64,000 nucleotides of DNA, from NCBI GenBank assembly GCA_903882905.1, contig CAIRYW010000019.1, forward strand, positions 1,406 through 65,405. Direction: 5' to 3'. The DNA is from an uncultured bacterium (lineage in GTDB: Bacteria; Patescibacteriota; Minisyncoccia; Phycocordibacterales; CAIRYW01). Below the pieces are notes generated by a model. That model worked only from the letters and a program-made list of their open reading frames with translations. It did not search any database and was not told the origin of the DNA. The translations under genes were made by a program, and so were the position numbers. Positions within the stretch are counted from its first letter, which is position 1, and each line of letters starts with the position of its first letter. Shown one piece after another: positions 3,106 to 27,665 of the stretch.

Positions 3106-3396
3106 AACCCAGCACCTTTTTATGCACTATGTGTATGTAATACAAAGCATTATTGATAAAAGTTTATATTTTGGCATTACTAATGATCTAAGCCGTCGCC
3201 TGTTAGAGCATAATGATAAGAAAAATTTTTCCACGAGTTATAAAGGTCCATGGAGGTATGTGTACATTGAAGGATATTTAAGTAGGAAAGATGCTGCTTT
3301 GAGAGAAAAAATTTTTAAGCATTACGGTAATGCACGGACTTATGTTAAACGTCGATTGAAAAATAGTTTAAGTGCATAAGAAGGTGCTGGGAAAAG
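3106..3396 (+). mobile_element. GIY-YIG ORF flanked by perfect 11-bp inverted repeats CCCAGCACCTT / AAGGTGCTGGG (copy A of the CCCAGCAC IR family)
   Basis: IR arms at 3108-3118 and 3381-3391 bracket the 3122-3379 ORF exactly; lies in the pilM-pilN intergenic region. Confidence 0.55.
3122..3379 (+). CDS. GIY-YIG nuclease domain protein (small, 85 aa)
   Basis: YVYVIQS...YFGITNDLSRRLLEHN GIY-YIG motif. Confidence 0.8.
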   Translation: MHYVYVIQSIIDKSLYFGITNDLSRRLLEHNDKKNFSTSYKGPWRYVYIEGYLSRKDAALREKIFKHYGNARTYVKRRLKNSLSA

Positions 3397-3462: not shown

Positions 3463-4185
3463 ATGGAAACAAAGTTTCAAAATACATTTATACCAAAATC
3501 AGCTCTTGATACTCCAAGTATTACTCCTAATAGACAAGCGAACTTTTTGACTTTTGTTTCAATGATTATTTTTCTTTTGAGTTGTGTTTTGGCGGGTGGT
3601 GTATTTCTTTGGGGACAGTATCTTGCAGGTCAGGTGAGTTCACTAAATCAAAGTCTAGAAATAAATAAAAATGCTTTTGAACCAGGCACGATTGAACAAT
3701 ATTCTAGATTAAATAGTCGATTCGATAGTGCAAGAGGTCTTCTATCAAGTCATGTCGCAGCTTCTGCATTCTTTGATTTGCTCAACAAAGATACTTTGAA
3801 AACAATTCAATTTTCAGATTTGAAGTATTCACAAGACGGAAGCGGCCTTATTTCTATCAAAATGTCTGGTAAAGCAAAGTCATATAACTCAGTTGCTTAT
3901 CAAGCCAAAATTTTTTCAAACGAAGTAGCTTTCAAGAACGCAGTATTTTCAAATCTAGATCTTGATCAGTCTGGAAATGTGATTTTTGAATTTGATACAC
4001 AAGTTAATCCAAGTCTCGTAACCTATCAAAATAATATTGCAGCCTATAAAAATCTTTCAAATAATGTACCTCAGACTTTAAGTATTCCAGATCAAAATTC
4101 AGTTTCAAGCAGTAGTAGCGTAGGAGGTTTATCTTTTCCACCAGTAACGTCTACAAGTTCAAATGTTAAATCTATAAAAAAATAA
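3463..4185 (+). CDS. pilN: PilN-like pilus assembly protein (single N-terminal TM)
   Basis: Position after pilM, TM helix then periplasmic domain, Ser-rich tail. Confidence 0.6.
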   Translation: METKFQNTFIPKSALDTPSITPNRQANFLTFVSMIIFLLSCVLAGGVFLWGQYLAGQVSSLNQSLEINKNAFEPGTIEQYSRLNSRFDSARGLLSSHVAASAFFDLLNKDTLKTIQFSDLKYSQDGSGLISIKMSGKAKSYNSVAYQAKIFSNEVAFKNAVFSNLDLDQSGNVIFEFDTQVNPSLVTYQNNIAAYKNLSNNVPQTLSIPDQNSVSSSSSVGGLSFPPVTSTSSNVKSIKK

Positions 4186-4743
4186 ATGAAAGCAACAATT
4201 TTTCCAATATTATTAATAGCCGGTGCAATAGGACTTTTTGTCTTAGTAACAAATCCTCAGTATCAAGCGGCCAAAGATGTACAGACTCAAGTAGGTAGTC
4301 TAAGTGAAGCTTTGGGTAAGTCCGAGCAAATTCTTGCAAAAAGATCCGAATTACAAATACAATATAATAATTTTTCTTCCAAAGATATTACCTCGATTGA
4401 CAAACTTCTTCCTGACAATGTCGATAACGTCCAATTGGTACTTGATATGAATGGAATCGCAAGAAATCATGGTATGGTTCTTAGAAATATAAAAATTCAG
4501 GATCAGGGCGGTTCTGGAAACGCTAGTGCGCAAGGAACTCAAGCTTTAGGTCCAAATAATAGTCCAGTTGGCTCTTTGTCGCTCTCTTTTGATGTAACAG
4601 GAGATTACCAAAGCTTCACAGGTTTTCTAAAGGATTTGGAACAAAGTCTTAGGATCGTTGATGTTACTGGAATTAGTTTTAAATCGACAGATAAGGGTAT
4701 CTACGATTATGTAGTAAATATAAAAACCTATTGGTTAAAATAA
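4186..4743 (+). CDS. pilO: PilO-like pilus assembly protein
   Basis: N-terminal TM plus coiled-coil; directly follows pilN. Confidence 0.6.
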   Translation: MKATIFPILLIAGAIGLFVLVTNPQYQAAKDVQTQVGSLSEALGKSEQILAKRSELQIQYNNFSSKDITSIDKLLPDNVDNVQLVLDMNGIARNHGMVLRNIKIQDQGGSGNASAQGTQALGPNNSPVGSLSLSFDVTGDYQSFTGFLKDLEQSLRIVDVTGISFKSTDKGIYDYVVNIKTYWLK

Positions 4744-8464: not shown

Positions 8465-8590
8465 CCCAGTACTAACTTTTCGGAACAATTTAAAAAAAAT
8501 GAGAATTAATAAATTACATAACATATTGAAAATAAAAATCAGTCAGACGACTGATTTTTGTGGTAAATTATCAGAAAAGTTAGTGCTGGG
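8465..8590 (+). repeat. CCCAGCAC-core inverted-repeat element, copy B (arms cccagtactaacttttc / gaaaagttagtgctggg, one mismatch)
   Basis: 17-bp arms separated by ~92 bp in the pilT-pilC spacer; the interior contains an ATGAG..TTAAT..AAATATT stretch similar to copies D/E and a small hairpin aatcagtc/gactgatt. Confidence 0.55.
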
Positions 8591-9852: not shown

Positions 9853-9907
9853 AAAACCTGCGAGGCTAAGCCTCAAGGATTTTAAGAGGCTTAGCCTCGC
9901 AGGTTTT
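9853..9907 (+). repeat. Perfect 22-bp inverted repeat AAAACCTGCGAGGCTAAGCCTC / GAGGCTTAGCCTCGCAGGTTTT (large hairpin) downstream of pilC
   Basis: Arms 9853-9874 and 9886-9907, 11-nt loop; likely terminator or REP-like structure. Confidence 0.6.
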
Positions 9908-9921
9908 CACTACAAAATTTG

Positions 9922-9961
9922 CCCAGCACCTTCTTTTGCTGCAGCAAAAGAAGGTGCTGGG
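9922..9961 (+). repeat. Perfect 40-nt palindrome CCCAGCACCTTCTTTTGCTG|CAGCAAAAGAAGGTGCTGGG (copy C of the CCCAGCAC family, no spacer)
   Basis: Self-complementary around a CTGCAG centre. Confidence 0.6.
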
Positions 9962-11120: not shown

Positions 11121-11486
11121 ATGAAAAAAGGTTTTACACTTATCGAACTTTTAGTTGTTATTGCAATAATTGGTATTTTGTCTTCTGTGGTTCTTACGTC
11201 TTTGAATGGTGCGAGAGACAAAGCAAAAATTTCTGCTTTCAAGTCTGAACTTTCTTCTCTTCAGTCTGGGTTGGTAAGTATTTGTGATTCTAGAGATATT
11301 GATGTTGCAACTGATACTCCAGCAATTGGTGCCCATAGCGCAGCTGATATTGCGAGTTTTGCACAAAGTTGTGCCGATGACACCGACCCGGTTTATACAT
11401 TTAGTGTTACATTCACTCCAACAAATGGTGCTGCCTGCACTGATGGGACTATCACTGATTCTACTACTACGTACACTGGTTGCTAA
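11121..11486 (+). CDS. Type IV pilin paralog
   Basis: MKKG|FTLIELLVVIAIIG, C-terminal Cys pair. Confidence 0.85.
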   Translation: MKKGFTLIELLVVIAIIGILSSVVLTSLNGARDKAKISAFKSELSSLQSGLVSICDSRDIDVATDTPAIGAHSAADIASFAQSCADDTDPVYTFSVTFTPTNGAACTDGTITDSTTTYTGC

Positions 11487-11536: not shown

Positions 11537-12019
11537 ATGAAAAAAGGTTTTACCCAGCACCAAGTTTTCACAAAACAAGAGTTAATCAAGCGTAAGTTTT
11601 CTATTAGAAAACTTAGTGCTGGGTTTACACTTATCGAACTTTTAGTTGTTATTGCAATAATTGGTATTTTGTCTTCTGTGGTTCTTACGTCTCTAAGTGG
11701 GGCACAAGATAAAGCTAGAAAAGCTGCGGTGATTTCAAGCTTGCAGAGTATTATGCACGAACTTACAATGTGTGATATTGATGGTGGTTTTGGTAGAACG
11801 GAAAACCCTATAGTAGCTGGCGATTATATATGTGTCACTCCAAGTGGAACTGTTAATACTCCTATGACAAATCATACGGCTACTTGGCCAAACATTACAG
11901 GTATTGGTGGTACATATGGGAGTGCTAGGAATGCATTTTCAACTGGAACCTATTCTTATATAGCGACAGTTAATGGTGCAACCATAACTTGTACTTACTC
12001 AACCCAAGTTTGTAGTTAA
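11537..12019 (+). CDS. Type IV pilin paralog with 25-aa insertion in the leader peptide (MKKGFT-[QHQVFTKQELIKRKFSIRKLSAGFT]-LIEL)
   Basis: Start ATG 11537, internal to ORF-track start 11507. The mature part is a paralog of the 10617 pilin; the insertion corresponds to IR element copy G. Confidence 0.75.
   Translation: MKKGFTQHQVFTKQELIKRKFSIRKLSAGFTLIELLVVIAIIGILSSVVLTSLSGAQDKARKAAVISSLQSIMHELTMCDIDGGFGRTENPIVAGDYICVTPSGTVNTPMTNHTATWPNITGIGGTYGSARNAFSTGTYSYIATVNGATITCTYSTQVCS
11546..11628 (+). mobile_element. CCCAGCAC-core IR element copy G (68-bp insert with 7-bp target duplication GGTTT(T)AC) inside the pilin leader-coding sequence
   Basis: Arms acccagcaccaagttt / aaacttagtgctgggt (one mismatch). 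Flanking GGTTTTAC / GGTTTAC duplication reconstitutes the G-F-T codons; total 75 bp, in frame. Confidence 0.6.
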
Positions 12020-12534: not shown

Positions 12535-13356
12535 ATGTTTTATTATCTTTCAGCAGTAATTTTTGTTGTCGGTACGATTATTGGCAGTTTTCTTAATGTC
12601 GTCGCTCTTAGAATCAATACTGGTAAGGGCTTAATGGGTAGGTCTTTTTGCATGTCTTGTGGAAAGACAATAAAATCATATGATCTTTTTCCTATCTTGA
12701 GTTTTCTATCTCTGGGTGGAAAATCCCGTTGTTGCAAGACAAAAATTTCTTGGCAGTATCCTTTGGTTGAATTTATCACAGGACTAATTTTTCTTTCAGT
12801 TTTTTTAAAGTTTTATAGTCTTGCATACGTTCCAGTTTTGGTTCCAACTTTTTGGTATTTAGCTTTTTGTATTTTGATTGTTATCACGATTTATGATGTA
12901 AGACATCAGATTATTCCAGATTTTCTTTCATATACTTTTGCATTTTTATCTGTTTTATATTTTGTTGGAGATAAAAGTCTTACAAGTATTTTTTCTTATC
13001 CAGAAATTTTAAATTTTTTGGCTGGCCCAATTATTTTTGCTGTGTTCTCTTTGGTTTGGTTTGTTTCAAAAGGGAGATGGATTGGTTTTGGAGATGGAAA
13101 ACTAGCCCTTGGAATGGGGTTTGCATTAGGATTTTCAGAAGCTCTTTCGGCAATTGCTTTTGCCTTTTGGATCGGGGCAATCTGGAGTATTTTTATACTA
13201 CTTTTTCAAAAACTTGGTATTGCAAAAAGTAAATTTAATTTTAAGAGCGCTGTGCCGTTTGCACCATTTATGATTGCGGGATTTCTTTTGGCTTTTATTT
13301 TGAGCGCTGATGTTTTTAGTTTAAATATGTTAATTTTTGGCCCAGCACCTTTTTAA
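12535..13356 (+). CDS. pilD: Prepilin peptidase PilD (A24 family, bifunctional)
   Basis: N-terminal Cys tetrad CMSCGK...CCKTK, multiple TM, catalytic Asp region. Confidence 0.85.
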   Translation: MFYYLSAVIFVVGTIIGSFLNVVALRINTGKGLMGRSFCMSCGKTIKSYDLFPILSFLSLGGKSRCCKTKISWQYPLVEFITGLIFLSVFLKFYSLAYVPVLVPTFWYLAFCILIVITIYDVRHQIIPDFLSYTFAFLSVLYFVGDKSLTSIFSYPEILNFLAGPIIFAVFSLVWFVSKGRWIGFGDGKLALGMGFALGFSEALSAIAFAFWIGAIWSIFILLFQKLGIAKSKFNFKSAVPFAPFMIAGFLLAFILSADVFSLNMLIFGPAPF

Positions 13357-13440
13357 TTTGTTAAAATCATGAGTTTAATTAAAATAATAAAAAAATATTT
13401 TTCAAAAAAAAATCTTAATGAAGTACAAAAAGGTGCTGGG
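13341..13440 (+). repeat. CCCAGCAC-core IR element copy D (14-bp arms CCCAGCACCTTTTT / AAAAAGGTGCTGGG) enclosing the start codon and leader of pseudopilin 13369
   Basis: Left arm overlaps the pilD stop; right arm encodes K-G-A-G of the cleavage site. Confidence 0.6.
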
Positions 13441-14076
13441 TTCACCCTCGTCGAAATGATGGTGGTCGTGGCTATTGTAATTGTCATGACTTCTATTTTG
13501 CTTTTGAAACAATCAAAGTTTTCAAGTGATATTTTGGTTACAAACGCTGCTTACGAAGTAGCCCTCTCAATCCGAGAAGCTCAAGTTTATGGTATTAGTT
13601 CCAAACAAACTTCCACAAATTTAAATGTTGGATATGGAATATATTTAGACAATTCATCCACAAATTCTTTTACTATTTATTCTGATGGCGGCTATTCTAG
13701 TAGTAATACATATAATTACACTTTTAATTACGGAGATACTGGCGAATCTTATGTTTCAATAGAAAATCCTCAACTTACACAAGGTCAGACAATAAAAAAA
13801 ATTTGCGTTGCTTCGACAATGAATAATATTAGTTGTTCTGATACTGATTCAACGCTCACAAAACTTAATATAGGTTTTATAAAGCCAAACCCTGAAGCTT
13901 TAATATATAAAAATGGTACTACTGGTACATCAAATAGGCTAAATGAAGCTTTTATAGTCGTTGCATCTGTTCTTGGAGATAAATGTAGAGTCGTCCGAAT
14001 AACTTCTATTGGACAAATATCAGTTGATACTCCTCGTCCTCTAGGTGACGAATGTACCGCTTTACCAACATTATGA
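13369..14076 (+). CDS. Minor pseudopilin with long 24-aa leader (..KKYFSKKNLNEVQKGAG|FTLVEM)
   Basis: Prepilin cleavage motif G|FTLVE after an extended leader; hydrophobic helix. Confidence 0.75.
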   Translation: MSLIKIIKKYFSKKNLNEVQKGAGFTLVEMMVVVAIVIVMTSILLLKQSKFSSDILVTNAAYEVALSIREAQVYGISSKQTSTNLNVGYGIYLDNSSTNSFTIYSDGGYSSSNTYNYTFNYGDTGESYVSIENPQLTQGQTIKKICVASTMNNISCSDTDSTLTKLNIGFIKPNPEALIYKNGTTGTSNRLNEAFIVVASVLGDKCRVVRITSIGQISVDTPRPLGDECTALPTL

Positions 14077-14639
14077 TAATAAAAAAAATAAAACAAAAAA
14101 ATATTGATGGTTTTACACTTATCGAATTAATGGTTTCTGTTAGTATTTTCGCTATTGTCGTTTTGGTTTCTATAACTGCAATCCTTGCAATTGTTGAAGC
14201 AAATAAAAAAGCTCAAGCTTTGGATGACGTAATAAACAATATGAATTTTAGTGTTGAAAGTATGGTAAGAGATTTAAGGACAGGCTATAACTATACTTGT
14301 TATATAAATGGAAGTTATGGAGCTTGTCCTTCTAATTCGGCAGTAAGCTCGATTACTTTTTTTTCTAGTATCTCTGGTTGTAATGTTACATATCATTTGG
14401 CTAGTAATGCGATTTATAAAAATATTTCATGTAACGGCGGAACTGACATGTCTCTTACTCCAAGTAATATTAATGTCAGTCGGTTTGATCTTTATGTTTC
14501 AAACCCTGCTTATGTTGCTCCTAATTACACACAACCAATTATTCTTATGGTTCTTCAAGCTAAAGCAAGTGTAGGAAAGCAATCAACTGAATTTGATTTG
14601 CAAACTTTAATTTCACAAAGGAGATTAAATATCCAATAA
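14073..14639 (+). CDS. Minor pseudopilin (MIIKKIKQKNIDG|FTLIELMV)
   Basis: ATG 14073 overlaps the upstream stop (ATGA); ORF-track start 14052. Confidence 0.75.
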   Translation: MIIKKIKQKNIDGFTLIELMVSVSIFAIVVLVSITAILAIVEANKKAQALDDVINNMNFSVESMVRDLRTGYNYTCYINGSYGACPSNSAVSSITFFSSISGCNVTYHLASNAIYKNISCNGGTDMSLTPSNINVSRFDLYVSNPAYVAPNYTQPIILMVLQAKASVGKQSTEFDLQTLISQRRLNIQ

Positions 14640-14643
14640 TATG

Positions 14644-14745
14644 AACCCAGCACCTTTATCTTTTCAAAATCATGAACTTCATAAATAAAACAAAAAAATA
14701 TTTTTTAAAGAAAAATTTATACAAAGCACATAAAGGTGCTGGGTT
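14644..14745 (+). repeat. CCCAGCAC-core IR element copy E (16-bp arms AACCCAGCACCTTTAT / ATAAAGGTGCTGGGTT) enclosing the start and leader of pseudopilin 14672
   Basis: Interior is homologous to copy D (aaaatcatga..ttaat..aaaaaaatatttt..); the right arm encodes KGAG. Confidence 0.6.
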
Positions 14746-15292
14746 CACATTAATTGAAACTATGGTTGCAATTACCATCCTTCTTGTAACTATTGTTGGA
14801 CCGATGGAGATCGCTTCGAAAGCTTTATTTTCTGCTTTTTATGCTAGAGATCAAATAACTGCATATTATTTAGCACAAGAGGGTATAGAGTCTTTAAGAA
14901 ACTTCAGAGATGTTTATTATTTAAATGGCTTTACTGGTTGGCCTTCTTTTGTGACAGATTGTTCATATGACGGGATAAGTAAGTATGGGTGTAAAGTTGG
15001 TGCTTCTAGTGGTGCGAATCCTGTTTATAGTGTATTAAAATGTACTGCTAAATGTGATACACCTAGTGATGCCCTATATTACAATAGTGGGAATGGTATA
15101 TATTCTTATATTACTGATTCTGGTAATACCAAATCAAAATATACTAGATTAGTGAAAGTTACCCCAGATGCAACAAATCCTAATGATGCCGCGCTCGTTG
15201 AATCGACAGTTTATTGGACAGGAAGTTATCTATCGAGCGGTACAAAATCTTTTACAATAAAAGAAATGCTTTATAACTGGCAGACGAAATAA
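14672..15292 (+). CDS. Minor pseudopilin with long leader (..KKYFLKKNLYKAHKGAG|FTLIETMV)
   Basis: Prepilin motif; the leader is similar to that of the 13369 gene. Confidence 0.75.
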   Translation: MNFINKTKKYFLKKNLYKAHKGAGFTLIETMVAITILLVTIVGPMEIASKALFSAFYARDQITAYYLAQEGIESLRNFRDVYYLNGFTGWPSFVTDCSYDGISKYGCKVGASSGANPVYSVLKCTAKCDTPSDALYYNSGNGIYSYITDSGNTKSKYTRLVKVTPDATNPNDAALVESTVYWTGSYLSSGTKSFTIKEMLYNWQTK

Positions 15293-15849: not shown

Positions 15850-17889
<2,040 letters not shown>

Positions 17890-17912
17890 CCTTTATTTGC
17901 TATACTCATTCC

Positions 17913-18191
17913 ATGATTTCTAAAGATGATATTAAAAAATTGGCTACCTTGTCTCGGCTCCAAATATCGGATTCTGAGCTTGAAAGTGTCTCAAAAGAGA
18001 TAGGTTCAATTCTTGAATATGTTGGAACTATTAATTCTGCTATTGCAGGTGAAGAAGAAAATTCTCCAGAGATTTATAACAATTTGCGGGAAGATGAAAA
18101 CCCAAATGACACAGGGGCACAAACCGAGACCCTTTTGTCATCAGCACCAAAGAGAGAAGAGAATTTTGTAAAAGTAAAACAAGTAATGTAA
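17913..18191 (+). CDS. gatC: Glu-tRNA(Gln)/Asp-tRNA(Asn) amidotransferase subunit C
   Basis: 92 aa, LSRLQISDSELE motif, directly upstream of gatA and overlapping it by 1 nt. Confidence 0.8.
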   Translation: MISKDDIKKLATLSRLQISDSELESVSKEIGSILEYVGTINSAIAGEEENSPEIYNNLREDENPNDTGAQTETLLSSAPKREENFVKVKQVM

Positions 18192-19603
18192 TGGATTTAA
18201 AAACTCTTACAATAAAACAAGCACGTAAAGATCTAGATGCTAAAAAATACACAGCTGTTGATTTAGTATCCGCATATCTTGAGGCGATCAAAGAAAAAAA
18301 TTCAAATCTAAATGCATATCTAGAAGTTTATAATGACGTCATTGCTCAAGCGGAAGCAGCTGATAAAAGAATCCAGAATGGTGAAAAAGGCGAACTTTTA
18401 GGAATACCTCTTGCGCTCAAAGATAATATTTTAGTTAAAGGCAGAATTGCATCTGCAGCATCAAAAATTTTAGAAAATTATGTCGCAACATATGATGCAA
18501 CCGCTATAGAGAAACTCAAAAAAAGCGGAGCTATTTTCTTAGGAAGATGCAATATGGACGAATTTGCTATGGGAGGTTCAACCGAAAATTCTGCATTTGG
18601 CCCAACAAAAAACCCTTATGATACTTCACGTGTGGCAGGAGGCTCTTCTGGTGGCTCAATAGCTACAGTAGCCTCAGATATAGCTCTTGGCGCCCTAGGA
18701 TCTGATACAGGGGGTTCTATTAGGCAACCAGCAGCCTTTTGTGGGGTAGTAGGAATGAAGCCGTCTTATGGAAGAGTTTCTCGTTATGGTCTTATGGCTA
18801 TGGGATCTTCTTTGGATCAAATTGGACCTGTAGCAAAAACGATTGAAGACGCAGAAATTATTTTTAAAGTTATAGAAGGGAAAGATAATTTTGATTCAAC
18901 TTCGAAAGAGTCTCCAATCGAAAAAAGACAAAATAAAAAAATAATTGGAGTGCCTAGAAAAATTCTAGAAGAGAAGGGAATTTCCGAAGAAGTCTTGAAA
19001 AATTTTAACGAATCAATTGAAAAATTTAAATCTGCTGGATATGAAATCCTAGACATAGAACTTCCAAGAATTTCATATTCTCTTTCAGTTTATTATATTT
19101 TGATGCCGGCAGAAGTTTCCTCAAACATGGCACGTTTTGATGGTGTTAAATTTGGAACTCTTGCTGAGGGAGAAACTTTGACTGAGGATTATATGAAAAC
19201 TAGAGGTACACTTTTGGGTAAAGAAGTCAGAAGGAGAATTTTGCTTGGGACATATGTTTTGTCGGCTGGATATTATGATGCTTATTATGGAAAAGCTACA
19301 AAAGTGAGATCCTTGATAAAAAAAGATTTTGATGAAGCCTTTAAAAAAGTTGATGCAGTCTTGATGCCTGTCTCTCCAACGCCAGCTTTTAAAATTGGTG
19401 AAAAAACATCGGATCCAATAGAAATGTATTTGGCAGACATTTTTACAGTGACGGCAAATTTAATCGGAACGCCAGCTATATCAATTCCTTCTGGGTTTAC
19501 TACGGGCGAATTACCACTACCTCTAGCAATTCAATTAATTGCTCCTTATATGCAAGACGAAATTCTTTTTGAAATTGGAAAAGATTTTGAAAAGTTGAAA
19601 TAG
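18191..19603 (+). CDS. gatA: Glu-tRNA(Gln) amidotransferase subunit A (amidase signature)
   Basis: GGSSGGS amidase signature, Ser-cisSer-Lys triad context. Confidence 0.9.
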   Translation: MDLKTLTIKQARKDLDAKKYTAVDLVSAYLEAIKEKNSNLNAYLEVYNDVIAQAEAADKRIQNGEKGELLGIPLALKDNILVKGRIASAASKILENYVATYDATAIEKLKKSGAIFLGRCNMDEFAMGGSTENSAFGPTKNPYDTSRVAGGSSGGSIATVASDIALGALGSDTGGSIRQPAAFCGVVGMKPSYGRVSRYGLMAMGSSLDQIGPVAKTIEDAEIIFKVIEGKDNFDSTSKESPIEKRQNKKIIGVPRKILEEKGISEEVLKNFNESIEKFKSAGYEILDIELPRISYSLSVYYILMPAEVSSNMARFDGVKFGTLAEGETLTEDYMKTRGTLLGKEVRRRILLGTYVLSAGYYDAYYGKATKVRSLIKKDFDEAFKKVDAVLMPVSPTPAFKIGEKTSDPIEMYLADIFTVTANLIGTPAISIPSGFTTGELPLPLAIQLIAPYMQDEILFEIGKDFEKLK

Positions 19604-26532: not shown

Positions 26533-26608
26533 GCCGATGTAGCTCAGTTGGTAGAGCAGGCGCTTCGTAAGCGTCAGGTCGACAGTTCGATTCTGTCCAT
26601 CGGCTCCA
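26533..26608 (+). tRNA. tRNA-Thr(CGT)
   Basis: GCCGATGTAGCTCAGTTGGTAGAGCAGGCGCTTCGTAAGCGTCAGGTCGACAGTTCGATTCTGTCCATCGGCTCCA, canonical cloverleaf, encoded CCA. Confidence 0.9.
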
Positions 26609-26676
26609 TAAATATAGAATATCTATATTTAGAGAATCGAAAAGCGCAGATATATTTTTCTGGTAATATTGTATTA

Positions 26677-27549
26677 ATGAAAGAAGAAAAAGAGAAAAGA
26701 ATATTAGAAATAGAACAACTTATGACAGGCTCGGATTTTTGGGCTGATAAAGAAAAAGCTCAACTTTTGATTAAAGAATTACAGGAGTTAAAGACTACTG
26801 TTGAGGGCGGAAGTCCCTTTGATAGCGGAGATGCTATTTTGACGATTTTTTCTGGAGCAGGGGGAATTGATTCTGAAGATTTTGCCTCAATGCTTCTTTC
26901 GATGTACCAAAAATATGTTGCAAAGAGAGGATGGGGAACGTACTTGGTTCATGAAAATAAAAATGATCATGGTGGAATTCGCAATACTACTTTTGAAATA
27001 AAAGGAAAGAACGCGTATGGAATTTTAAAAAATGAATCAGGTGTTCATCGTCTTGTGCGACTTTCTCCGTTTAATTCAAAAAGTTTGAGACATACCTCAT
27101 TTGCAATGGTTGAAATAATTCCAAAGTTTGAAAAAAAAATGAATATAGAGGTACCAGAATCTGAACTTAAAATTGAATTTTCAAAATCTAGTGGTCCAGG
27201 AGGACAAAATGTAAACAAAAGAGAAACAGCTGTGAGGATTGTTCATGTTCCAACAAAAATTTCGGTGCATGTAGATTCTCAGAGGAGTCAGGGACAAAAT
27301 AAAGAAAAAGCACTTGAGATTTTAAAAGGCAAACTCTACACGATTTTTGAGGCAGAAAGAATTGCTCGAGAAAAGGGAATGCAAATATCTAAGACCACAG
27401 ATGTGGAGTGGGGAAATCAGATTCGCTCTTATGTTTTGCATCCATATAAGATGGTTAAGGACCATAGAACGAATGTTGAGACCGCAAATACAGAAGCTGT
27501 TTTAAATGGAGATATCGAAAAATTCTTAGAAGCCGAAAAATTTCTGTGA
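26677..27549 (+). CDS. prfB: Peptide chain release factor 2 (short N-terminal domain, no +1 frameshift site)
   Basis: SPF tripeptide (RLSPFNSK), GGQ (SGPGGQNVNK). The ORF-track start 26548 runs through the tRNA-Thr gene and is spurious; first ATG is 26677. Confidence 0.85.
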   Translation: MKEEKEKRILEIEQLMTGSDFWADKEKAQLLIKELQELKTTVEGGSPFDSGDAILTIFSGAGGIDSEDFASMLLSMYQKYVAKRGWGTYLVHENKNDHGGIRNTTFEIKGKNAYGILKNESGVHRLVRLSPFNSKSLRHTSFAMVEIIPKFEKKMNIEVPESELKIEFSKSSGPGGQNVNKRETAVRIVHVPTKISVHVDSQRSQGQNKEKALEILKGKLYTIFEAERIAREKGMQISKTTDVEWGNQIRSYVLHPYKMVKDHRTNVETANTEAVLNGDIEKFLEAEKFL

Positions 27550-27561
27550 AGAAATTTTGAG

Positions 27562-27665
27562 GCCCAGCACATAGTTTTTCTGATTTCGTGCCATGTTGGT
27601 CTAATTTTGATATAATTAATACACATTGAGTTTTAATTTTCTACCCAGAAAAACTATGTGCTGGG
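27562..27665 (+). repeat. CCCAGCAC-core IR element copy F (21-bp arms GCCCAGCACATAGTTTTTCTG / CAGAAAAACTATGTGCTGGGC)
   Basis: Perfect arms separated by 62 bp between prfB and ftsE. Confidence 0.6.

Follow-up and report, generated by a model that had tools for sequence, protein, structure and literature searches.

Two pseudopilin genes of an uncultured Patescibacteriota bacterium start inside segments of about 100 bp that are bounded by perfect 14-nt inverted arms (CCCAGCACCTTT../..AAAGGTGCTGGG). Both lie in a 64,000-nucleotide stretch of its DNA (GenBank assembly GCA_903882905.1, contig CAIRYW010000019.1, positions 1,406 to 65,405; hereafter the window). The two segments, E5 and E6, probably belong to a family of hairpin-ended insertion elements, the long form of which carries a GIY-YIG gene, and are likely to have arisen within it by rearrangement. 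The family was shown to be repeated in this genome and in many Patescibacteria. The finding is more general than the initial annotation of this DNA had seen, which described such inverted-repeat elements at the two pseudopilin genes and at one pilin gene. Loci from relatives and from metagenomic organisms used for comparison carry L-numbers, and positions without one refer to the window.

Hairpin elements in the pilus operon

E5 (13341..13440, plus strand, 100 bp) occupies the 5' end of pseudopilin gene 1 (13369..14076, plus strand; leader MSLIKIIKKYFSKKNLNEVQKGAG|FTLVEMM), and E6 (14646..14743, plus strand, 98 bp) that of pseudopilin gene 3 (14672..15292, plus strand; leader MNFINKTKKYFLKKNLYKAHKGAG|FTLIETM). 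Both genes matched the Pfam N_methyl motif. The arms of E5 are CCCAGCACCTTTTT (13341-13354) and AAAAAGGTGCTGGG (13427-13440), those of E6 CCCAGCACCTTTAT (14646-14659) and ATAAAGGTGCTGGG (14730-14743), each pair being perfect over 14 nt. Taken with its flanks, the E6 repeat reaches 16 nt, and 28 nt at 89% complementarity. The start codons (ATG 13369-13371 and ATG 14672-14674) lie in the loops. The initial annotation had the left arm of E5 overlapping the stop codon of pilD (prepilin peptidase A24; 12535..13356, plus strand), and it does: the T of the TAA at 13354-13356 is the final base of the arm, and the arm encodes the last five sense codons of pilD, G-P-A-P-F. The right arms of both elements likewise read K-G-A-G immediately before F-T-L, as described there.

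The claimed homology of the interiors at the DNA level was also borne out. E5 and E6 are collinear without gaps at 76% identity over 112 nt (76-78%), the untranslated AAAATC before the ATG included, and the unit consists of the arms plus a AAAATCATGA..AAAAAATATTTTT interior. In their mature parts, genes 1 and 3 do not align. Predicted RNA folds were dominated by the stems, with -26.0 kcal/mol for E5 (z -4.1) and -29.9 kcal/mol for E6 (z -7.8), in line with the strong mRNA structure that had been predicted. N_methyl was matched in pilin gene 11537 as well, and in all three genes the motif stands directly 3' of the right arm. Each has the features of a type IV prepilin, namely a leader-final Gly followed by F-T-L-(I/V)-E and a hydrophobic helix.

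Scanning the window for paired termini of the form (A)CCCAGCAC...GTGCTGGG(T), with the arm pair CCCAGCACC..GGTGCTGGG, revealed seven elements. CCCAGCACC occurs nine times against 0.21 expected, and none of 100 shuffles reached nine; all seven elements fold as long stems (z -4 to -9). Given this count and these z-scores, the description of E5 and E6 is correct and far beyond chance. E1 (3108..3391, plus strand, 284 bp; 21-nt arms with one mismatch) lies between pilM and the next pilus gene and encloses an open reading frame (ORF) for a GIY-YIG protein. E2 (8465..8590, plus strand, 126 bp, ORF-less) fills the pilT-pilC spacer; in L081 and L083 the same spacer holds a GIY-YIG gene between arms with a different terminus (ACCCTGTTAAATGA). 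E3 (9922..9961, plus strand), a compact perfect 40-nt palindrome downstream of pilC, has an orthologous copy in L083 (7139-7178). E4 (11553..11623, plus strand, 71 bp; 18-nt arms with one mismatch) sits inside pilin gene 11537, and E7 (27563..27665, plus strand, 103 bp, ORF-less; 21-nt perfect arms, 23 nt with one mismatch) in the spacer after a release-factor gene. The short elements of the window thus measure 40-126 bp, with arms of 14-23 nt. The initial annotation had counted three copies, all in pilin-family genes. The third copy, in gene 11537, is real, and the count was too low, the window holding seven elements, one of them with a nuclease gene.

When the arms of 16 elements, taken from the window and from relatives, were compared, the first eight positions were nearly invariant, and positions 9-13 covaried in a compensatory manner, position 12 being C-G, G-C, T-A or A-T. 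The arms are element DNA and not a peculiarity of genes 13369 and 14672. That they are the DNA of an inserted element, as had been proposed, is supported by the same termini bounding the GIY-YIG gene, four other loci in the window and hundreds of hairpins elsewhere. Searches of the elements against Rfam gave chance-level matches only, and promoter-like sites over them were not above chance. A terminator-like score was obtained for E3 alone and on the minus strand only, although by eye its plus-strand stem is followed by TTTT. A promoter or terminator role for the elements was rejected on these grounds.

The ORF within E1 (3122-3379) encodes 85 aa with a single GIY-YIG domain (Pfam E = 1.1e-13, residues 1-72) and no other domain; the long form of the family carries this small gene, a predicted nuclease. 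The best solved relatives of the protein are the UPF0213 proteins BH0048 (E = 2e-5) and EF2693, and its protein family comprises 3439 clusters at E <= 0.001, mostly of 85-100 aa. A homologue scan with a four-sequence alignment as query, taking one genome per species, gave 72 loci. The closest homologues (Patescibacteria, Omnitrophota) stand in tight brackets of split inverted repeats, at 13 or more such loci. Those of L009 and L010 carry the window's own termini; others differ, e.g., ATCCCGTTAGAGA or ACCCCGCCC. Of the more distant homologues, many (Bacteroidota, Bifidobacteriaceae, Kiritimatiellae and others) instead have long hairpin-containing direct repeats on either side. Homologues 62-66% identical, again bracketed by CCCAGCAC termini, were found within 16S rRNA genes, where they occupy two sites, the tip of the V3 hairpin in L006 and L007 (3080-3384) and the V2 region in L008 (2074-2377). 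For one of these 16S-embedded ORFs the gene caller had extended the reading frame into the rRNA, giving 121 aa.

Insertions at cleavage codons and in structural RNA genes

Prepilin-motif sites proved to be a recurrent position of such elements, as the initial annotation had suggested. Together with its duplicated TTTA (11549-11552 and 11624-11627), E4 spans 11549..11627 and makes a 75-nt in-frame insertion of 25 codons in the pilin leader, MKKGFT[QHQ..LSAGFT]LIELL (insert QHQVFTKQELIKRKFSIRKLSAGFT; inserts stand in square brackets). The paralogue at 11121 represents the empty site, MKKG|FTLIELL, and DNA 3' of the insertion is identical in the two genes. In L083, a 41-nt CCCAGCACC hairpin plus TTTA adds 15 codons to each of genes 3 (MSLKKLFKKIGNKIGFT[QHLLFLKKKEGAGFT]LIET) and 4 (MKKNNQKNKGFT[QHLIFSSKKEGAGFT]LLYA). 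Gene 1 of L082 holds a 131-nt element with CCCGCACAC ends at the same TTTA, for which gene 1 of L083 is the empty site, and gene 3 of L205 a CCCAGCGC hairpin, again at TTTA, which adds 17 codons and is absent from L206. The major pilin of L192, MKKKGFT[QHLL..KKGAGFT]LIELL, has gained 22 codons with a CCCAGCACC hairpin and a TTTA duplication. Filled and empty sites could be paired for E4, L082 and L205; L083 genes 3 and 4 and L192 were read without an empty-site comparator. These alignments showed at least six independent invasions of the TTT-A of the Gly-Phe-Thr (G-F-T) cleavage codons, by several sub-families.

Every copy retained at G-F-T has GGG as its last three bases and a length that, with 4 added, is divisible by 3. 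Because this GGG is followed by the duplicated TTTA and then C, the junction GGG-TTT-AC restores Gly(-1), Phe(+1) and Thr(+2). The right junction (..G-A-G|F-T) and the frame are kept, and the insert therefore becomes an extra leader peptide. In E4, L083 genes 3 and 4, L205 and L192, the inserted palindromes would be translated in frame. The prepilin peptidase PilD would cleave off the inserted peptide together with the leader, which would make the leader a permissive niche in a compact genome.

A survey of leaders took in the 214 gene 1 and gene 3 orthologues in which a cleavage motif could be recognised. Leader length had a median of 15 aa, and a raw regular-expression screen returned roughly 40 leaders of at least 30 aa. 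At least seven had a tandem G-F-(T) signature, and nine ended in (G/S)AG|F. Many long gene 1 and gene 3 leaders (e.g., P0311, P0302, P0299, P0045, P0048 and P0104) share ..LKA(K/N)SYKLKA.. just before the cleavage site, a sign that other Patescibacteria may carry one more repeat family at this position. A further hairpin family, with CCCTACAAA..TTTGGAGGG ends, was seen in L081 (10702-10800 and 11336-11460), in the leaders of pseudopilin genes 2 and 3, where it gives the common peptide ..FLPKS..FLL.NKKVKILE... Gene 3 of L081 contains two different elements within one leader.

The target was characterised with an unbiased metagenome scan for CCCAGCACCTT-N14-44-AAGGTGCTGGG, which returned at least 120 loci from organisms of 30-65% G+C. 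Among the matches listed, an exact 4-nt duplication was present in 12 of 99 distinct flanks, against 0.72 expected from shuffled pairing, and a longer one in none. All 12 duplications were TNNA, and eight were TTTA, TTCA or their complements (TTYA). Fresh insertions were shown to carry a 4-bp TNNA target duplication, mostly TTYA. With 8/12 duplications of this kind, TTY-A (a Phe codon and the first Thr base) is a preferred target.

Compact hairpins with arms identical to those of the window (CCCAGCACCTT..AAGGTGCTGGG) were also present in structural RNA genes of unrelated metagenomic organisms. They lie in two different helices of RNase P RNA (L110 1090-1137, L113 5402-5462 and L133 3103-3168), in a 160-nt 5S rRNA (L191 5659-5722) and in 16S rRNA (L097 623-673). 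Peripheral helix tips of rRNA, RNase P RNA and 5S RNA would thus parallel cleaved leaders as places where a hairpin does little harm.

Origin of E5 and E6

In E5 and E6 the left arms lie upstream of the start codon, unlike the insertions at G-F-T. We consider it likely that the two represent a rearranged state, in which the arms have come to bracket a start codon and its leader, and that the unit was copied between gene 1 and gene 3, displacing an older start at gene 3. The arms and interior would have been copied together, because E5 and E6 match without gaps up to and including AAAATC and the mature parts cannot be aligned. The GIY-YIG nuclease is the likely agent of spread or maintenance, and if it works as Ssn nucleases do, its substrate would be the hairpin in single-stranded DNA.

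Several comparisons speak for displacement of an older start by the element. L081 has the element type of L082 and has lost the old leader; its gene starts at an element-internal ATG, which is the architecture of E5, and the left arm abuts the L-I-F codons of pilD and provides the pilD stop. The comparison of L081 with L082 shows that loss of an old leader can leave an element-internal ATG as the start. In the window, an ATG at 14641..14643 (plus strand) stands directly before the left arm of E6, where gene 3 starts in L083 and L081, but here its frame differs from that of the gene and leads into a stop. Because this ATG is vestigial, the working start of gene 14672 is the ATG inside the arms. 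The same arrangement was found at gene 3 of L204 (protein 53% identical), with E6-orthologous arms identical at 14 of 14 positions, so that the E6 state is old and stable. L207 is a relative without any element in this locus and retains a native pilD/gene 1 junction, TTAATTTTTGGAAATG. The proposal that the elements supply both start codon and leader is consequently well supported for gene 14672; for gene 13369 the element may or may not be their source. The 28-nt extended repeat of E6 was also considered as an inverted FTLIE duplication and was judged coincidental: its left part is the end of gene 2 plus the old ATG, and L083 and L081 have the same gene 2 end and ATG.

Several observations weigh against this origin. 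Neither E5 nor E6 has a target duplication. Their interior encodes a native-type leader (KKYF.KK..KG), and at L005, a syntenic locus with 39% protein identity, the gene 1 leader MKKYFSKKNTNHQKG|FS occurs without arms. A 24-nt motif is common to E5, E6 and L005 only, among 206 loci, and in the window it was found in E5 and E6 and nowhere else, even with three mismatches allowed. No similarity could be demonstrated between the E5/E6 interiors and the nuclease gene; global alignments of the interior with five long-form elements gave z between -0.75 and 1.2, and one of 2.8, relative to shuffles. We saw no mobility or polymorphism, and four contigs from other samples were 100% identical over the region shared with the window. 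The motif of the Ssn/SRM system discussed below, HGTCWYN(0-2)YYVSBRHN(0-5)WNVSBRGN(0-2)RNCYNB, had 0 matches in the window and 18 homologue loci. Lastly, only about 2-3 of the 99 unbiased hairpins among the matches listed lay in pilin-like contexts. For this reason the recurrence at G-F-T is best explained by preference for a tetranucleotide together with the survival of those insertions that are tolerated, and it may reflect such survival more than targeting.

Because L005 has the interior without the arms, E5 is not fully accounted for by a simple model in which an element inserts at G-F-T and the old leader is then lost. The arms may have come to enclose a native leader; alternatively, the interior may have begun as an element loop, passed on to L005, where the arms were later lost. 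The initial annotation had held that long leaders of this kind, universally conserved in relatives with non-palindromic DNA, would indicate an ordinary leader; native-type leaders without arms in L005 and many orthologues agree with this in part. The interior was also considered as a fossil of the nuclease ORF, KKYF resembling K.LYFG and KN.L..A resembling the C-terminus by eye, which a shuffle test did not support. L005 is the syntenic locus of a more distant relative and has no CCCAGCAC elements; it has an IS200-like Y1 transposase gene among its pilin genes and a PemK toxin pair after pilC (3911-4594 and 1747-2333).

Another possible history, which we regard as doubtful, is that both leaders are native and the arms are scars. 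Compact hairpins would have inserted separately upstream of the start and at G-F-T, and each would have lost its inner half by palindrome-stimulated deletion, leaving leader and start untouched; downstream, the end points of the deletion would have been the AAAGG at the close of the native leader and a second AAAGG, within the right arm. The arm-less leader of L005 and the frequency of KK[YF]F.KK leaders (MKKFF.KK type) in arm-less orthologues are consistent with this, as is the finding that the right arm differs from L005 by six extra bases only, AAAGG[TGCTGG]G. In addition, deleting 13341-13368 yields TTTGGATGAGT, a typical ATGA stop/start overlap of pilD and gene 1, and the native starts of L207 and L083 lie a few bases after the same TTAATTTTT. 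However, the E6 arms share a compensatory change, TTTAT/ATAAA, which is present in L204 too and points to one palindrome of origin. The gapless match of E5 and E6 between unalignable genes argues for copying as one unit, the vestigial ATG precedes the left arm of E6, and two separate half-deletions would be needed.

It is improbable, in our estimation, that the stems are selected regulatory RNA, a 14-16-bp helix closing the start-codon loop and tuning minor-pilin translation as a thermosensor or through ribosome access. The predicted folds are strong and specific, and the E6 arms show no change between the window and L204, in contrast to the diverged loop ends. Such conservation is equally explicable by nuclease specificity or by homogenisation among copies. 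The start codon lies outside the stem, in an A/U-rich open loop of about 70 nt, and the orthologues of L083, L207 and L005 work without a stem. The same arms recur in rRNA, RNase P RNA and spacers and around the nuclease gene, so their sequence is family-wide and not gene-specific. Arm mismatches of the G-U-only kind, considered as a mark of selection at the RNA level, were few. If E5 and E6 are rearranged insertions, the strong mRNA stem would be a by-product, which may or may not affect translation, and the gating proposed in the initial annotation is conjectural. Very little speaks for invertible switches (intragenic invertons) flipped by a recombinase to turn the pilin genes on and off, beyond the layout itself: inverted repeats around a start-codon segment are how known phase-variation switches are built. 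The arms are only 70-72 bp apart, and a single orientation was seen in five independent assemblies (the window and four contigs). The flipped junction was not found in metagenome contigs, a weak point since the native form may be absent there too. The window contains no Y1 transposase homologue, and no search aimed at invertases was made. The same arms, moreover, bound insertions with target duplications and enclose the nuclease gene. With 70-72 bp between the arms, one orientation in five assemblies and no flipped junction in metagenome contigs, the inverton reading was set aside as highly unlikely.

The E5/E6 unit belongs to the distal part of a type IV pilus operon, in a window of 34% G+C. 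The gene order is pilM, pilB/T-type ATPases, pilC, five pilin paralogues, pilD and four pseudopilins, followed by DNA ligase and gatCA, and the named homologues are Patescibacteria labelled 'Candidatus Paceibacterota' and 'Wolfebacteria'. Contigs of other samples were 100% identical to the window across 13281-14266 and further. One of them (L001 1-200) diverges completely upstream of window position 12787, within pilD. Contig ends fall at 13245, 13281 and 15170, several contigs beginning 60-96 nt before E5 or stopping at 15170; this may point to variants in the population or to assembly breaks that repeats induced. Just after pilC and 14 nt before E3 lies a further inverted repeat (AAAACCTGCGAGGCTAAGCCTC...; 9853-9907), perfect over 22 nt and with a loop of 11 nt; it is unrelated in sequence to the CCCAGCAC family and may be a terminator or another repeat. 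Upstream of E7, a tRNA gene (26533-26605) overlaps the mechanically called TTG start of the release-factor ORF (26548-27549; PCRF and RF-1 domains), so either the true start must be sought at a more downstream position or the gene contains a frameshift, as prfB does. Downstream of gatA, the end of the L083 contig carries a LAGLIDADG-type ORF (17656-18288), which may represent an intron or a homing-endonuclease insertion such as have been reported for the candidate phyla radiation (CPR).

Related systems and implications

By analogy, the closest characterised system appears to be Ssn/SRM. The Neisseria enzyme SsnA, 94 aa long and with GIY-YIG as its single domain, cleaves single-stranded DNA beside a repeated hairpin; its gene is flanked by that hairpin, and the system restrains transformation (Chenal et al. 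2025, PMC11893778). Cleavage does not require the loop sequence, the stem halves may be on separate strands, only 2% of NTS repeats lie inside genes, and Patescibacteria are unmentioned in that study (PMC11893778). The likeness extends to a single-domain GIY-YIG protein of roughly 90 aa with its gene bracketed by a hairpin-forming repeat, for which the window has the 85-aa ORF and its 21-nt arms, and to a repeat that is present in the genome in many copies, clustered near surface and pilus-related genes. Separable stem halves fit arms that are split here by 22-266 nt, and many of the distant homologues retrieved have the direct repeat-gene-repeat layout. There are also differences. The gene in the window stands between the two arms of one inverted repeat and not between two complete hairpins, hairpins of this family occur in coding leaders and structural RNA genes with target duplications, and the best solved relatives of the 85-aa protein are UPF0213 proteins.

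Insertions in CPR rRNA genes are a second point of comparison. GIY-YIG-encoding non-intron insertions have been described at several scattered sites in these genes, along with numerous short insertions without an ORF at the tips of stem-loops (Tsurumaki et al. 2024, PMC11270868). L006, L007, L008 and L097 are such cases. Inverted repeats, palindromes and hairpin ends have zero occurrences in that paper, and its coverage leaves aside the protein-coding genes, RNase P RNA and 5S RNA that were included here. REP/REPIN-RAYT systems (IS200-like) and MITEs (miniature inverted-repeat transposable elements) are similar in having short hairpin repeats spread over a genome, and an enzyme gene, in single copy, with that repeat on its flanks. 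Terminal inverted repeats, small size, the lack of a transposase gene and a short target duplication (not in E5 and E6) are further MITE-like features. The enzyme, by contrast, is a GIY-YIG nuclease and not a Y1 or DDE transposase. An autonomous partner with a transposase, as for MITEs, was not found, the long form encoding GIY-YIG and the window holding no Y1 homologue, and the interiors of the short forms had no similarity to the long form.

Rickettsia palindromic elements (RPEs), reportedly described by Ogata and colleagues in 2000, are said to be short palindromic repeats that lie in frame in protein genes and are translated at tolerated positions. RPEs occur in the small genomes of host-dependent bacteria. 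E4, L083 genes 3 and 4, L205 and L192 resemble them, judging by description, as palindromic repeats in frame in a coding gene. They differ in occupying one specific codon triplet of a processing site, which the element end rebuilds, and in that the added peptide would be removed by cleavage and that a nuclease-bearing long form exists. The system is an Ssn-like nuclease/hairpin pair with RPE-like in-frame insertion, and its distinctive feature is that it enters and regenerates the prepilin cleavage site.

A stronger claim, that the element ends are shaped to enter the prepilin Gly-Phe-Thr codons and that the E5/E6 hairpin is a working, nuclease-coupled part of the pilus operon, seems to us improbable. 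If true, genes of the DNA-uptake machinery would contain the target of a single-strand nuclease, in a hairpin from which, or within which, two minor pilins take their start and leader. The nuclease of the element would then be linked to pilus expression or to recombination at this locus, comparable to the limit that NTS/SsnA sets on transformation in Neisseria.

The findings unite the GIY-YIG 'insertion sequences' of CPR rRNA genes, the short unexplained rRNA insertions and Ssn-type nuclease/hairpin pairs as one hairpin family, which enters protein-coding genes too. They offer a molecular reason for the presence of an element in an essential processing site, where a GGG end and a TTYA duplication restore G|F-T and the peptidase would remove the added peptide. 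This accounts for many of the unusually long and variable pseudopilin leaders of Patescibacteria, and it carries a warning that gene callers will misplace starts at such genes. Finally, the exact arm sequence of 9-11 nt, kept across organisms of 30-65% G+C, is a candidate recognition site for a new single-strand nuclease specificity.

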